20,000 nucleotides of DNA from contig JBNGIO010006257.1 in the NCBI GenBank assembly GCA_049999805.1, positions 128,100-148,099 of the forward strand. The letters are read 5' to 3'. The translations under genes were made by a program, and so were the position numbers. The DNA comes from Folioceros fuciformis (taxonomy: Eukaryota). Position 1 is the first letter of the stretch, and each line of letters opens with the position of its first letter. Below the pieces are notes generated by a model. It did no database searches. It saw nothing but the letters and a program-made list of their open reading frames with translations, and was not told where the DNA came from. Below, piece by piece: positions 5,237 through 12,606 of this stretch.

Positions 5237-8200
5237 TTAATCCAGGGGGCCTGGAAACAGCATCACCGTGCAAATACATACACTTGCTGCAAAAAAGAGA
5301 GGAGTGAACCCACCTCTCCGGCCTGCACCCCCACCTACACCACCTCCACCAGCACCTGTGCCTTGCCCGATAGCAGCACCGGGTGGCTTGTTAGATAGAC
5401 GCCGCTTATATCGTTTCAACACAGATGCCAAGTTCTCTTTCCCTTTAGGAAATGCAACATCTCCGGCAGCTGTACCAGTGCGTCCTTTGCGATGCCCCAC
5501 TGCTAATTCCACGTCTTTGATGATGTCCAAGAACATGGAGGCACTAGCACCCTTACCCTGGACAGCACAAGCGGTATTCTGTCCCCAAAGTGCGCTGCCG
5601 TGAGCATTTTTAGGTGAGTAACCGTTGGAAGGTGAGAAAGCGTTGATGTGTTCCAGCCCTTCATAGTCTCTCGCACTACCTAGTCTGCCAAGGGATGTTC
5701 GCTTCACTCCATTTTCCAGTGCCCCAAATTCTTGCAGACACAGACAAGGCAGTGGGACCTGCCGTGGTTTCCCGAAAGCTGGTTCAAGGATACCCTGCAA
5801 CCGAGGTAGTTTTGGTCAGCATAAGCTCCTCACACTGTGTATGAACAGATTATAAGTGAGTGGCAACAAGACTTGATACCTGAAGGCGGTTCAACACGTA
5901 TGTGTATTTCCCCCACAGTTCTGGCCTGCTCTCCATCACAGAAAGCTCCAGGACACGATGAACACACCACACTCCAAAGCTGAGCAGCAGTCCCTTGTTC
6001 CAAACACATTGATCGCCACAACGAGGAATGGCACTGTTTCCAAAGCTAACTTCAGGACTTTTCTTTACTGGGACGCCCACAGACCGACCGTAGGTCTGCC
6101 AGTGCTGCTGGTCGCTGCAAATTCTTTTGAGTGAGTCAGAGGCTAACCTCTGATATGCAGCAATGGAAGCAATGAGGTCCTGGTCTGAGCCACCACTGTC
6201 AAAGCGAAATAGCCAATCTGAACCTTCCAGCTGTGACAGCTTGACAAGACATGCCTTGAAACCCTCCAGCATTTCTACTTCAAAGTCAGTTGCGCCAGCA
6301 CTCCCACTCGGAGGAGCATAAGTTATACCAGAGCCATCCATTCCAAGAGTTCTACTATCCAAGGAACTCTCTGTCGTTCCAAAAAGTTGTTCAAAGGGCT
6401 GCGTCGACCAAAGGGACTGATTTCCGGAATCTGGCATTGTCTGTGTCGAGAAGTTTTCTTTGGATGACCGAGCTGGTGAGATTTCATCGAATGGCAATAG
6501 GACCCTAGGCTCAGTACCAAACCCTTCCTCCCTAAGTGCAGAGCCACCGAACGTAGCAGGACGTGTACCCTCAGTCCACTGAGAAACTGAGTCGAATTGA
6601 TGTGACATATCCAGTTCCCCTGTGGCTCTAGACACGAGCGGATCCCATCGGCCCGTGGCCCTGCTCACAAGAGGGCTCCACTGAGGGAACTCATATTCTG
6701 ATGGCGGAAAGCTGGAATCATCTACATTCGACTGGCCTGCTTCTCTTGGATATCGCATATCAAGGTACATGGGTCTTGCTTTCACTCTGGGAGAGACAGG
6801 GCTACTACTTGGGCTAGATCGATTCATAAATGAAATACTTTGACATCCATGAATCGTGGCAGGTTGGTGGTCATACTCCTCACGAGGTGCAGGAAGCTTC
6901 ATACTGGAATAAGGGCGTTCAGTCCTGAGAAGTCCACTCCTGCCCAGCATATCAGGTGAAAGTCCAAATCGAGATGATGTTGACGCTGCTGCATAAGTGT
7001 GTGCACGCAAATATGCATCCATGCGGCCCAGCTGGTCAGAGAACGTCTGTGTTTGCCAGGATTTCTTGGGCTGCCTGGGAGCAAATGACTGCAGGTCACT
7101 CCTTTCGTTCCCATTCTGCTGTCTTTGTTTCACCGCCGTACCATGCTTGGTGCTAGGTGGCCCTACTGGCTGCCCATGGAGGTCAAAAATGTTGCCCCAA
7201 AATTCATCGAGGATTGCAGCAAATTGCCGCCGAGCCGCCCGGCCAAATCCTGAAAGTCTGGATAGACTACCACTGCCACTTCCGCCCCCACTACCTTCAC
7301 TGGTGTCACTTCGGCCCCCAACACTTCGTCCTGACCCGGGGCCATCATATGCCAGGGAGGGGAGACTTCCACTACGGCCAGGAAGGACCACTTCTTCGGG
7401 CCCTAGATTCTCCCAGGCATCTGCTTCCTCGTGTGTGTCTAGCAAGTCCAACTCCGCATCAAGACCTACCTCTGCATCCGCCTCTGCCTCCGAGTGCTTC
7501 AATATAGAAGAATCGATGTCCTCCTCCTTCAAGTCACGCATCAGGCTCTCACTCTTACTGATCACACTCCCGAGGACAGACCCTGCTGGCGACTGTGCAA
7601 GGGGTGACGGCCCTGGTGTTGAAGTTGAGCTTGTAGACGAAAGGGACTCCTCGAGGAAACAGTCGTCACAACTGAACACAGGAGGTCGCTTCAATCCTTC
7701 TGGTTCAGAGTCTGCCTCAATGGTCAGATTGGGTGCAGACTTTGATGGCACAGCATAACCATGAAGTCCCTGGATAGAATCACCTATGCCCCTTGACAGT
7801 GAGCCTTCTTGAGAAGAGGTTGGACAATTGCTGGAAGGCAGATCAGGACTCTTCTCATGGTGTGCCAGTTCACGTTCAGCACAAGGAGCAAGATCCCGTT
7901 GTGTTGCATTTATTTCACATCCAGTTAACCCCTCTTGTTTTGAAACAGTTGCTCCTTGTATCCTTTCATATTCCTCAATCCACAATTGCCTCCGCAGCTC
8001 TTGGCTCTCAACTCGAAGAGGAGTTATAGTCATCCAGACCAGGAAACCCACTGACATAAATACTGCAACTAGCATCGTAGAAAACAAGGCAGCTTGTCCT
8101 GTCTCTGCCCATGTCAGCGACCACCACTCTAGGTTTGCTACTGTCTCCCAACTTGCAAAATTGACCCACTCATCACTTTCTCCGAAAAGCATGTCGGAGA

Positions 8201-9943
8201 CAAGCCACATGTCCAGAAAGAAAACTATACCTACTGTGATCCAAGCTAAAGATTTTACAGCAGCAGCATTTTTGTGGGCACCCATATGGGCACCAGATGA
8301 CGTTATCTTAATCAGGGGGACTACAGCAAAAGGAAGCTGCAGGGCAAGAAAGACCTGCGAAAAAATCAATAATTGATATGTCCCTTGACTGCCTGTTCTC
8401 CAGACACACACAGCTGCAGGAATAATAGCTGCGAGTCGTATACAGAATCGATGGACCCACCCATGCATTTTGGCCTGAAGAAACCCCTCCAGAGCTACTT
8501 GCCCTGCTACAGTTCCTGTGAACGCTGAGAGCTGGCCCGCACATACCAACGCTAAGCCAAAGACTGCTGGTGCCATGGCATTGTCCAATATCTGCAGACC
8601 CACACCAAGGGTTCACATTCCAGAGGACACAGCAGGTCTTGCTGATAGCTACCAAAAGACACAAATGCAAAGTTCAGCAATCAAGCCAGACCTAGTCAGC
8701 TACAGCATGCACGTGTCCCTTACAAGTTCCATGAGTGCATGGGCATCTTGAAGGGTAAGAACCACACGCCCAGCGTTGTGGAAGGTGGTGGCAGCCACCA
8801 TGAGAACCACCAGGTTGACAATGAGAGCTGCACCAAATGCAACTGCAATATCTACAAAATTGTACCTACAAAGAGCATCAAACGAACCCCTCCACCTCTC
8901 CCGTCGACCCTGCAGTGTGGGAATCGCGCAGGCGAGTTAGAGTAGCTTCCAGCCTTGAAGCATACGATCGTGTGGGATATTCGCACCTGACCGGAAGGAA
9001 CACCCTGAAACGTAAATTACCTGAAGAAGAGAAGAATGCAGATACAAGTTGTGGGGCATGATATTTGCGCCAAACAAACTGACTACAGTGTACAGGCTCT
9101 CCCGCCTCAGCCTGGGTACCAACCCGGACACGACCGCAGCCATCGGTGGATTGCTCAGCAGGATATGAAGAACAAAGCAAAGCAGCACGAGTCCAATAAC
9201 ACACACCGACGCCATCTCCGCCTTCCGAACACCCTGCAAGATAGGAACGCTACCGGCTCAGTACATATACGAACATCCATGTTACATTTAATTGAGCACC
9301 AGAAAGTGCAAAAACAAGACCTTCGTACCAGTAAGGGCAGAATCAACAGGTAGAGAACCGCATCGGCTGCCATAAGAAATATACTGGAAAGCATGGGAAA
9401 ATGCAGGAGAAGGTCCAAGCCGATAGCAGTCCCCAACACCTGAACACACAAACATCACAATTCAGTCCACCAACCCTTACTCACAAGACATAACCTCCAA
9501 TTCACATTATGGGGCAGGACATCACCATTGTCAAGTCTTGAGCTACGACGGACATCTCGCACAGAATCCACATAAACAGGGACGTCCCTCTTGGATACTC
9601 CTCCCTGCAAATCTGCGCTCGGAATCACGCCAATGTCAGTAAAACCCCACTGCACCCGGCCATACACGCATGTGCGCTCGCGGAATACAGTGAGCAATCA
9701 GACGCTTCTGCCCACCTGAGCCAGGTGCTTCCCCGTCACCAACCCTAACCGGGCGGCCAAAGTCTGCAGAAACAACGCCATGACGTTGGCCAACACCAAC
9801 ACCCACACCAGCTCGTACCCGAATCGTGATCCCCCCTCAATGGCCGTTGCCCAGTTTCCGGGATCCATATACCCCACTGAGACCAGAAATGCTGGCCCCA
9901 GAAACGGCACAAACGTGGCCACGGCTGCCTGGACCCTGTCCAT
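5237..9943 (-). CDS. EIN2: Ethylene-insensitive protein 2 (NRAMP-like membrane domain plus C-terminal signalling CEND), ~1364 aa
   Basis: Seven exons: 9943-9716, 9612-9526, 9439-9329, 9233-9021, 8909-8724, 8591-5880, 5794-5237, all phase-0 GT-AG. The ATG is in a GCCATGG context. NRAMP motifs GYMDPGNW and MPHNLYLHS are present. EIN2-specific motifs: [114 protein letters not shown] (NLS at 5419-5396). The extreme 3' end is uncertain. Confidence 0.97.
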
Positions 9944-10403: not shown

Positions 10404-10572
10404 GGAAGTCCCAGTTCAAACCCGCGGCCTGTGTTCCAACCATCCTCTGCAGTTTGAACCCTAAGCACCAGCATGACACCGCATCATCGTTTTATCTCAC
10501 CATGGTTTACATGGATTCTGTCTTATCATGCCGCATGTCCCTTTCCCGGGAGCCGCCAACGCTGAGGGCGGC

Positions 10573-12606
10573 ATGGTGAAGAAGAAGCGGGAGCGGCATC
10601 ATGCCGCTGTGGTAACGTCGCCCGGAGATTACGTTCATTTCAAGGCCATCGTCCCGCTGCGCCATATCTCGGTGGGCGCAGCTCGGCCGCGTTTCGTGGG
10701 CTGTTTTTTTTTTCAGCTCAATTTTGGTGCATGCATGAATTTTCAAGTAGCCTGGATCATGCAGATAGGGACTAAGCAGTGGCGGTATTACGATTTCGGG
10801 CCCAAGACTGTGCCCCCACTGGTTTGCCTTTCCGGCATAGCTGGCACAGCTGACGTGTTTTACAAGCAGATTTTGTCTCTGTCTTCCAAGGTGAGTTTTG
10901 TAGGAGGTGGTTTTGGGTGGAATCTGCTGTGGATTTGTGCAGGGAGCCCTGCCAAGATGGGAAAGTGCATTCTGACTGCGGATCTGTACTCAGGGTTATC
11001 GGCTGATCGCTGCAGATGCACCATCGGTTTGGAGCCACCAGGAGTGGGTTACTTCGTTCGAGAAGTTTCTGGACGTTCTTGGAGTGCATCATGTAAGGTT
11101 GGCGGGTTTTGCTGACTTGGGAATTGGGAAGGTTTGTGATGCTGGGATCATCTGTTGATGGGTGGTCCTGGTTGGGTTTCTGCAGGTGCATCTCTATGGT
11201 ACCTCGCTGGGTGGCCTTCTAGCTCAGCTGTTTACACAGTTTCGTCCTCGGCGTGTGAAGTCGCTGCTGCTGTCCAACACGTTTTTGGATACGCAGACTT
11301 ATCATGATGCCATGACATGGCACTCGCTGTGAGTAAATTGCCTGCTTGGAGCTGGTAGGCCCTTGGCTGCTTGTGTGAGCTAGAATCGCTCATGGTAAGG
11401 TTTTTTTTTGTCTATGCAGCATAAATTGGACTCCTGAATTTCTTCTCAAGAGGTATATTCTGACGGGGATTCAAGACGGAGTTCATGATCTTCTTATTGC
11501 GGATGCTATTGACTTCGTGGTCAGCCAGGTTGGTGGAGCATAATCTATGTTGTTTGTGTTCTGTGTCTGGTGCTTGTTAGTGAGGGATGGATGTTAGCGC
11601 CTTAATTTTCTTGTTGGGGAATGTTGTAGTGTGGTTAACGATGAGATGAGCTCCTTAGTGGCATGTGTGCAGTCTTGAGTTTCTAGGCTGACTTATCTTC
11701 GATCTTTGAGTTGTGCAGCTTGAGAATGTGACCCGGGAAAAGCTAGCTTCAAGTCTCACTCTGAATTCTCAACCTATTTCGGTCGGACAACTTTCACTGC
11801 CAGACTCAACCATCACCATAATGGATGTGAGTCAGTTGAGATTCGTCCCGTCCATGGATGCGGGCATGTTTAGAGAAAGGATTTAGAATAGGAGACAGAC
11901 GTGTTTCTTTCGTATGTTCGGAACATGATGATGTTTGAATCTCCAGCTGGTGTTTGTGGTTCTGCAGACAAATGATTACTGTGCTATACCTCAGCTGTTG
12001 AAAGACCAAGTCCTTGCCCGATATCCTGGAGCCAGACGTGCGCATCTTAAGACGGGTGGAGATTTTCCTTTTCTGTCAAGACCCGATGAAGTTAATCTCC
12101 ATGTCAAGGTCTGTACGTTTGGCTGGAGCGATGACGATAATGGGGCCTTGGTTGATGGGACGGCATTTTGGTGACGTGGTTATTGGGTCTTTTAACAGCT
12201 CCACTTGAAGCGTGTTGGAGTTGAAGGCACTGAGTTAATGGAGGCTGAGGAAGCACTCTCAAGAGATGATCAAAATGGCGTTTCAGGAGTCGGTGAAGAT
12301 TTCCATATGCAGCATGAGGATCAGGCTTCAAGGAGGAATGGGGGCCTGACATCAAAAGAACCACATGGTCCTTACGCTGGTAACGGAGGAATTTCTCTTG
12401 CTCAAGACGTCTCATCATCAGAAGGTGAAATTCAACACGGTAAGCAGCCATCTCATCTTCTGGTTAGTGGCTATCCGCACAAGCATTCCAAATCGTTTCA
12501 GTGAAGCCTTGGTGGCTGCTCTCTTCCAGAAACCGACAGACGAAGTCGCTCCCACCCAAGTTTTCTGGACGAGTACAATGGTTTTGGAGACTTCAGTACT
12601 GTGTAG
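10573..12606 (+). CDS. SPG21: Maspardin (SPG21/ACP33)-like alpha/beta-hydrolase fold protein
   Basis: Exons 10573-10671, 10765-10890, 10994-11092, 11186-11328, 11420-11528, 11719-11826, 11968-12108, 12199-12439 and 12530-12606. The last intron is tentative; without it the stop is at 12504. Motifs: PGDYVHFK, QWRYYDFGPKTVPPLVCLSGIAGTADVFYKQ, VHLYGTSLGG (nucleophile elbow), WTPEFLLKRYIL, HLKTGGDFPFLSRPDEVNLH. Confidence 0.92.

Follow-up and report, generated by a model that had tools for sequence, protein, structure and literature searches.

Folioceros fuciformis EIN2 keeps the residues of a canonical NRAMP metal site, a state shared with chlorophyte, liverwort and Chara EIN2s

The window analysed here (a stretch of 20,000 nucleotides of the Folioceros fuciformis genome, whose positions are used throughout) contains a minus-strand gene for EIN2, in which an NRAMP membrane domain is followed by the three conserved boxes of the CEND (Table 1). 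Its seven exons are separated by six introns, all of them GT-AG, and the spliced translation gives 1364 amino acids with no internal stop; the TM3 stretch straddles the junction of exons 2 and 3. A single Logan contig (X1, 4387 nt, 0 differences) runs across the seven exons with 6/6 introns absent, and among contigs of relatives at 90-95% identity X2 and X8 lack the same six introns and X16 lacks five of them, so that the basis of the splicing is a set of intron-skipping public contigs. None of their source runs is recorded as RNA, and that they are RNA is a guess. The TM6 codons (9036-9065) show no base difference in X2, and the codon differences listed for the gene are mostly silent (14/17 in X2 and 14/19 in X8); exon 1, which holds the TM1 codons, has two differences in X2 and one in X8. 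Contamination, or a chimera joining a canonical NRAMP to EIN2, could be ruled out, because one contig covers all seven exons and the membrane domain groups with EIN2. The gene is single-copy, the last CEND box having one match across the genome assembly searched (87 Mb). Upstream of it, at about 10477-12174 (+), lies a divergent multi-exon gene resembling alpha/beta-hydrolases (Abhydrolase_1 at E 3e-5, under the cut-off), and downstream, at about 4425-3041 (-), a gene of at least two frames whose product has a Pro-rich stretch, a hydrophobic segment and an acidic tail rich in Trp, and for which a Pfam search gave no match.

Table 1. Features of the Folioceros fuciformis EIN2 gene, with equivalent DraNramp residues in brackets
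Feature	Position in the window	Strand	Residues and remarks
EIN2 exon 1	9716..9943	-	aa 1-76, TM1-TM2, ATG at 9943
TM1 DPGN	9854..9865	-	D27 (= DraNramp D56), N30 (= N59), predicted metal ligands
EIN2 exon 2 (TM3)	9526..9612	-	E95 (= DraNramp E124), D102 (= D131), M105 (E134 position)
TM3 residues	E95 9558-9556, D102 9537-9535, M105 9528-9526	-	
EIN2 exon 3	9329..9439	-	end of TM3 to TM4
EIN2 exon 4 (TM5-TM6)	9021..9233	-	E148 (= E176), N199 (T228 position), M201 (= M230), H203 (= H232), H208 (= H237)
TM6 motif M201-H208	9036..9059	-	M201 9059-9057, H203 9053-9051, H208 9038-9036
EIN2 exon 5 (TM7)	8724..8909	-	R215, D233 (= D263), N245 (= N275)
EIN2 exon 6	5880..8591	-	TM8-TM12 (H322, R323, R327, Q354 = Q378), acidic linker, CEND boxes 1 and 2
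CEND conserved box 1	7197..7232	-	aa 729-740
CEND conserved box 2	5880..5981	-	aa 1146-1179
EIN2 exon 7, including stop codon	5237..5794	-	
CEND box 3 with putative NLS	5396..5464	-	aa 1290-1312; NLS 5419-5396, named after PMC12290401
Hydrophobic Cys-bearing C-terminal tail	5240..5308	-	aa 1342-1364, 23 aa, after the NLS

Four of five exon translations match Pfam Nramp (E 3e-9 to 3e-28), so that the occurrence of the motifs is not due to chance, and a crude hydropathy scan finds nine peaks in residues 1-460. The C-terminal half matches named EIN2 proteins, the best of them from Marchantia paleacea at 45%, and a CEND profile of 22 land-plant sequences detects the protein at E 3e-193. In quick IQ-TREE searches without bootstrap, 33 EIN2 rows form one clade (SH-aLRT 100) when the motif columns are excluded together with P0406 and P0439, two long branches that joined each other in a 58-row tree, and the land-plant EIN2 group (25 rows) has an SH-aLRT of 99. 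Folioceros EIN2 is placed within land plants, outside liverworts, mosses, lycophytes and ferns, as sister to liverworts plus mosses with an SH-aLRT of only 76. It is an ordinary ortholog of a known protein. We also noted two putative CTR1-type phosphosite contexts at residues 691-699 and 834-839, where a comparison by eye with Arabidopsis EIN2 (whose phosphosites we take to be S645 and S924) suggests an Arg-Ser and a Tyr-Ser-Ser resemblance. The C-terminal tail is also found in Marchantia, Riccia, Ceratodon, P0240 and Chara EIN2; it is absent from the fern, seed-plant, Sphagnum, Calypogeia and Selaginella rows shown, and Diphasiastrum has a shorter hydrophobic end. This tail might serve as an additional anchor in the membrane or as a site of acylation, either of which would affect CEND release. 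The highest identity to Folioceros is that of Marchantia paleacea EIN2 (57% over 386 columns), and the bryophyte and Chara proteins (MpEIN2, our P0232; PpEIN2A/B; CbEIN2) likewise combine an NRAMP domain with a three-box CEND and an NLS (PMC12290401). For the moss orthologs, location in the ER, release of the CEND and a requirement for the ethylene response have been demonstrated (PMC12290401).

The same genome contains one match to EIN3, nine exon matches to CTR1/EDR1-type genes on four contigs, and three canonical NRAMP genes plus one weak fifth match. Two of these canonical genes are intronless single frames (L002, 184-2031 on the minus strand, and L003, 1216-2994 on the plus strand) and the third, L004, is split by introns. 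A gene of the LCIB family, which is not known from land plants other than hornworts, was also observed (L006/L007, G000:C1919), with several exons and an N-terminus resembling a transit peptide.

In DraNramp, Mn2+ is bound by D56, N59, M230, two carbonyls and a water to Q378 (PMC6888756, PMC10185341). All three side-chain ligands are matched in Folioceros EIN2 (D27, N30 and M201), which together with H203 and H208 make up the five site residues followed below. The register to DraNramp is exact in TM3, where E124 is followed after seven residues by D131 and after three more by E134 (DraNramp sequence, EcoDMT E129Q and ScaDMT alignments). Matches extend to the canonical gate-network positions Y54, Q89, E176, D263, N275 and Q378 and to H232/H237, the gate residues retained in Folioceros being Y25, N53, Q60, E148, D233, N245 and Q354. 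The T228 position is Asn (N199) and the T130 position is Gln, and the protein is off the consensus at H322, I326 and A358. The canonical proton path is incomplete, with M105 at the E134 position and H322 in place of the first TM9 Arg; E95, D102, R323 and R327 are kept. The original prediction had read these residues correctly from the DNA: the coordinates of DPGN (D27-N30) check, the TM6 Met is accompanied by both His, and in TM3 the first Glu and the Asp are kept where the proton-coupling Glu has become Met. Its description of Arabidopsis EIN2 also holds, since DPGK, DLTM and VPH can be seen in the supplementary alignment of PMC12290401. Overall, all side-chain ligands and most gate residues are common to Folioceros EIN2 and the canonical Nramp/MntH proteins (DraNramp, EcoDMT, ScaDMT), which have Glu134 where Folioceros EIN2 has Met and, like the Nramp+USP proteins, are without a CEND.

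The distribution of the site was tallied from a set of 515 sequences, of which 444 span the whole NRAMP domain and 129 of those have a CEND. Besides Folioceros, the tally covers EIN2 or EIN2-like proteins of 11 chlorophytes, 5 liverworts, 10 mosses, 3 lycophytes, 6 ferns, 7 gymnosperms and 68 angiosperms, as well as 206 bacterial Nramp+USP proteins and 102 other Nramps; lineage labels of unnamed proteins (4 ferns, 5 gymnosperms, 1 moss, some algae and angiosperms) were given by tree position, and the 11 chlorophytes exclude the members of a near-identical Picocystis cluster and include two proteins without a CEND that fall inside the clade. A sequence labelled Diacronema lutheri, a haptophyte (P0366), sits among near-identical Picocystis-like sequences and is probably a contaminant of the dataset. 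The five residues are all intact in 11/11 chlorophytes, Folioceros, 5/5 liverworts, one of ten mosses and none of the three lycophytes or the 81 ferns and seed plants, and all 12 tallied sites are invariant in every chlorophyte and liverwort of the tally. The site is also intact in Chara EIN2 (CbEIN2) and moss PpEIN2A according to the published supplementary alignment, where MpEIN2, PpEIN2A and CbEIN2 likewise have DPGN, Met at the TM3 Glu position, MPH and both His (PMC12290401). This wide sharing excludes a peculiarity of the Folioceros gene and bears out the earlier suggestion that other seedless-plant EIN2s may be in the same state. The site has nevertheless been eroded repeatedly, in other mosses and in lycophytes, and was lost in Spirogloea, a zygnematophyte alga whose EIN2 (P0406) shows an independent loss of D27, N30, M201 and H203. 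In Diphasiastrum EIN2 (P0125) the TM6 Met has become Ala with the other site residues intact, and DraNramp with the same Met-to-Ala change admits Mg2+ import (PMC13060092).

The individual positions behave differently. All 30 rows from chlorophytes, bryophytes and lycophytes have Asn at position 30, and 81/81 ferns and seed plants have Lys there, with D27 invariant in every one of them; N30K is a change that marks vascular plants and is fixed in ferns and seed plants. On the 58-row tree, from which the motif columns were left out, N30 changes twice among 34 EIN2 rows, so that free variation among relatives is not seen, and M201 changes eight times. The contrast with Arabidopsis EIN2 that the original prediction had drawn at the TM6 Met is not supported as a general one: Met is present in 54/68 angiosperms and in 5/7 gymnosperms, the Arabidopsis VPH is not the seed-plant norm, and Met to Val is ruled out as a seed-plant marker. 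Seed-plant EIN2 shares with the Folioceros protein the domain order, the CEND boxes, Asp27, His203 and His208 and, in most cases, Met105, and differs from it in Lys30, in the absence of the hydrophobic tail and, in angiosperms, in the loss of E148 and D233 from most sequences. All rows from chlorophytes, bryophytes, lycophytes and ferns have Met at position 105, and the corresponding residue is Glu in 206/206 Nramp+USP proteins and 97/102 other Nramps.

The combination of an EIN2-type NRAMP domain with two or three CEND boxes was observed in several chlorophyte proteins (P0018, P0241, P0244-P0250 and P0254), with CEND matches at E 1e-25 to 1e-39 in Chlamydomonas, Pleodorina, Tetraselmis, Picocystis, Ostreobium and Flechtneria and weaker ones in Scenedesmus and Volvox. 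These EIN2-like proteins form the sister clade to land-plant EIN2 and share the same site signature, including Glu to Met (11/11); they differ in their linkers, which are shorter or of low complexity, and in retaining the first TM9 Arg. Chlorophytes thus already have both the fusion of NRAMP with CEND and the change from Glu to Met in TM3, which makes the two older than land plants. It follows that the site in Folioceros is a retained ancestral state and not a half-way form, and the proposal of an intermediate in a transition from NRAMP to EIN2 is not supported. In the available text of a review, EIN2 homologs are described as apparently absent from chlorophytes (PMC10518463), and a preprint, as far as its available text goes, reports the signalling domain as missing in most chlorophyte lineages (10.1101/2024.02.21.581324). 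A Chlamydomonas EIN2-like gene (CrEIN2L, Cre07.g315200) has served as an outgroup (PMC12290401) and was named NRM3 elsewhere (PMC3772215); the C. reinhardtii protein XP_001700793 (P0018) is likely the product of this gene, and functional data on the Chlamydomonas ortholog were not found in the literature searched.

For one chlorophyte ortholog (P0248), the predicted NRAMP fold overlays Mn-bound DraNramp (8e60) with a target TM-score of 0.90 and an rmsd of 2.8, and the three CEND boxes are predicted to form one compact helical domain at residues of about 650-880 (pLDDT 85.9, pTM 0.86). This CEND core matches no Pfam family, and its best structural match (Z 8.6, rmsd 3.1, 122 aligned) is to generic helical repeats, which neither name a family for it nor exclude one; EIN2 entries were absent from the solved-structure searches. 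A likeness of the core to EST1/SMG7 was considered and dropped: EST1_DNA_bind came first in the Atlas for two queries, at 0.78 and 0.76, under the lead level, the matches listed in three fold searches with the core included no chain of SMG or EST1, and a CEND-core profile detected nothing at the EST1-family locus of the Folioceros genome (best E 0.68). The core is predicted to be all-helical, unlike USP, the fold of which is alpha/beta. Bacterial Nramp+USP proteins (MntH CaU, PMC9606685) are the best non-EIN2 matches, about 50% identical to the algal domain, and the available part of the paper that describes this clade mentions neither EIN2 nor ethylene (PMC9606685).

Conservation over the whole domain was scored at 71 positions that are conserved in at least 85% of the 102 reference Nramps. 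Folioceros EIN2 matches 63 of them, the top value among the land-plant EIN2s sampled, compared with 64 and 65 for the genome's own canonical NRAMPs, 62 for Diphasiastrum and 63-67 for chlorophytes, a score that favours algae because the references were fetched with a Chlamydomonas query. Liverworts (50-57) and mosses (52-55) keep fewer, as do ferns (48-56), gymnosperms (44-49), the best angiosperm (50) and Spirogloea (46). The comparison of 63 matches with the best angiosperm gives a Fisher p of 0.012, that with Marchantia (55 of 71) does not reach significance (p = 0.12), and 92 of the 102 reference NRAMPs score above Folioceros EIN2.

Considering that all ancestral metal-site residues are kept, it is likely, as judged from sequence, that Folioceros EIN2 and other early EIN2s still bind Mn2+ or Fe2+. 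We tentatively favour, at somewhat under an even chance, a reading in which the membrane domain would hold Mn2+ or Fe2+ and work alongside the canonical NRAMPs as a carrier that is slow or biased, and in which the output of the CEND would depend little on metal. A possible but less probable explanation is that the residues are a structural relic, which would hold the unwound TM1 and TM6 and bind partners in an ordinary EIN2 scaffold, with no metal in vivo. DPGN and MPH are also helix-breaking structural motifs (PMC6888756), so that their conservation does not tell a structural role from one in metal binding. Such a relic would fit the erosion seen repeatedly in mosses, lycophytes and Spirogloea, as well as the fact that angiosperms keep D27, H203, H208 and mostly M201, yet heterologously expressed EIN2 showed no detectable transport in reports that also suggest a metal-sensor role (PMC7912600, PMC13449459). 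Binding of the stabilising protein MHZ3 by the NRAMP-like domain of rice EIN2 (PMC5877927) would give the scaffold a partner. However, invariance of the 12 tallied sites in all chlorophytes and liverworts argues against it, and so does the transporter-like conservation of Folioceros and algae, compared with only 44-56 of 71 positions in the lineages without the site.

According to the favoured carrier reading, Folioceros EIN2 would reside in the ER membrane, as other EIN2s do, and its unwound TM1 and TM6 would enclose a divalent ion between them in a DraNramp-like manner, the clade-wide changes at the E134 and T228 positions making the carrier slow or conformationally biased. EIN2 would not be the main importer of the cell because the genome has three canonical NRAMPs. 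What the change at the E134 position implies for proton coupling differs between model transporters, the evidence being split between DraNramp and EcoDMT. Glu134 of DraNramp is needed for H+ transport, with E134A removing most of the metal-stimulated H+ transport, and mutation of the equivalent residue in E. coli MntH abolishes Mn2+ transport (PMC6888756); in EcoDMT, Mn2+ transport persists in both E129A and E129Q, of which the former leaks H+ and the latter remains H+-coupled (PMC5230734). The suggestion that metal might move uncoupled from protons is therefore not sustained, given that EcoDMT E129Q stays coupled and that D102 and H203 are kept, although the DraNramp evidence points the other way. 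We regard it as very unlikely that EIN2 functions as a uniporter uncoupled from protons and contributes in its own right to Mn or Fe homeostasis in the secretory pathway. The behaviour of DraNramp E134A would agree with it, proton-independent canonical Nramps such as BfraNramp exist (PMC12873925), and algal orthologs carry database names such as 'nramp2' and 'manganese transport protein', which are labels and not tests; against it stand E95 and the two TM9 arginines, retained along with D102 and H203 in the proton path, the behaviour of both EcoDMT variants, and the three canonical NRAMP genes. A published DraNramp variant library includes N59K and E134M (PMC13060092), two variants that are directly relevant to the carrier reading.

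Evidence on whether signalling needs the site comes mainly from moss. In transient assays with ppein2ab, Arabidopsis EIN2, Chara EIN2 and the membrane-less CENDs of both restore the response of an ABA reporter (PMC12290401), so that the rescue covers the ABA response. Since Arabidopsis EIN2 and CEND-only constructs rescue this defect, a signalling role of the site is doubtful, and signalling probably does not need the metal site; rescue by the CEND alone also suits the relic reading. The link between metal status and ethylene signalling that the original prediction had proposed finds no support, because Arabidopsis EIN2 restores the ABA response with Lys and Val at the two positions and the CEND does so by itself. 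It is thus unlikely that EIN2 works as a transceptor, in which metal occupancy would set the conformation of the membrane domain, gate phosphorylation or release of the CEND and so convey metal status to ethylene or ABA output. Several observations would nonetheless suit such a device: an intact site and a three-box CEND have been fused since before the split of chlorophytes and streptophytes, a divalent-metal sensor role for EIN2 has been proposed in print (PMC7912600), the Arabidopsis triple response requires the membrane domain (PMC5877927), and Lys30 is fixed instead of drifting, a hint that the charge at this site is of importance. However, the moss rescues argue against it, seed-plant EIN2s signal without N30, and no direct evidence was found.

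For the carrier reading with signalling through a cytosolic CEND that would not need metal, the Asn-to-Lys change may be understood as a replacement of the ion. In ferns and seed plants, the amine of Lys30 would pair with the invariant Asp27 and take over from the metal as a built-in cation, a step that is suggested by conservation (Lys30 fixed, not drifting, beside Asp27) and by analogy with ApcT. Such a lysine would explain the absent transport by Arabidopsis EIN2, the protein with which the negative result was reportedly obtained. A wider scenario, which we consider doubtful, is that EIN2 originated as a Mn/Fe-carrying transceptor before chlorophytes and streptophytes split, that carriage or sensing of metal persists in the EIN2s of hornworts, liverworts, Chara and chlorophytes, and that a lysine lock in the ancestor of ferns and seed plants turned the protein into a metal-independent ethylene switch.

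The residues concerned are visible in the supplement of PMC12290401, the main text of which does not contain the word 'metal', and comment on retention of the site or on the Asn-to-Lys switch was not found in the open-access literature (subscription journals were mostly outside the search). If the site is inert, the finding shrinks to an ordinary ortholog with ancestral residues. The NRAMP+CEND fusion is placed in chlorophytes, contrary to a review as far as its available text goes (PMC10518463), the Chlamydomonas EIN2-like gene having already been named in PMC12290401. The role of the NRAMP-like half of EIN2 has been described as unclear (PMC7912600), and the protein for which no transport was detected, reportedly Arabidopsis EIN2, has Lys at a key ligand. 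The orthologs informative for the metal question are those of hornwort, Chara, Marchantia and Chlamydomonas, and the single key swap is Asn/Lys at position 30.
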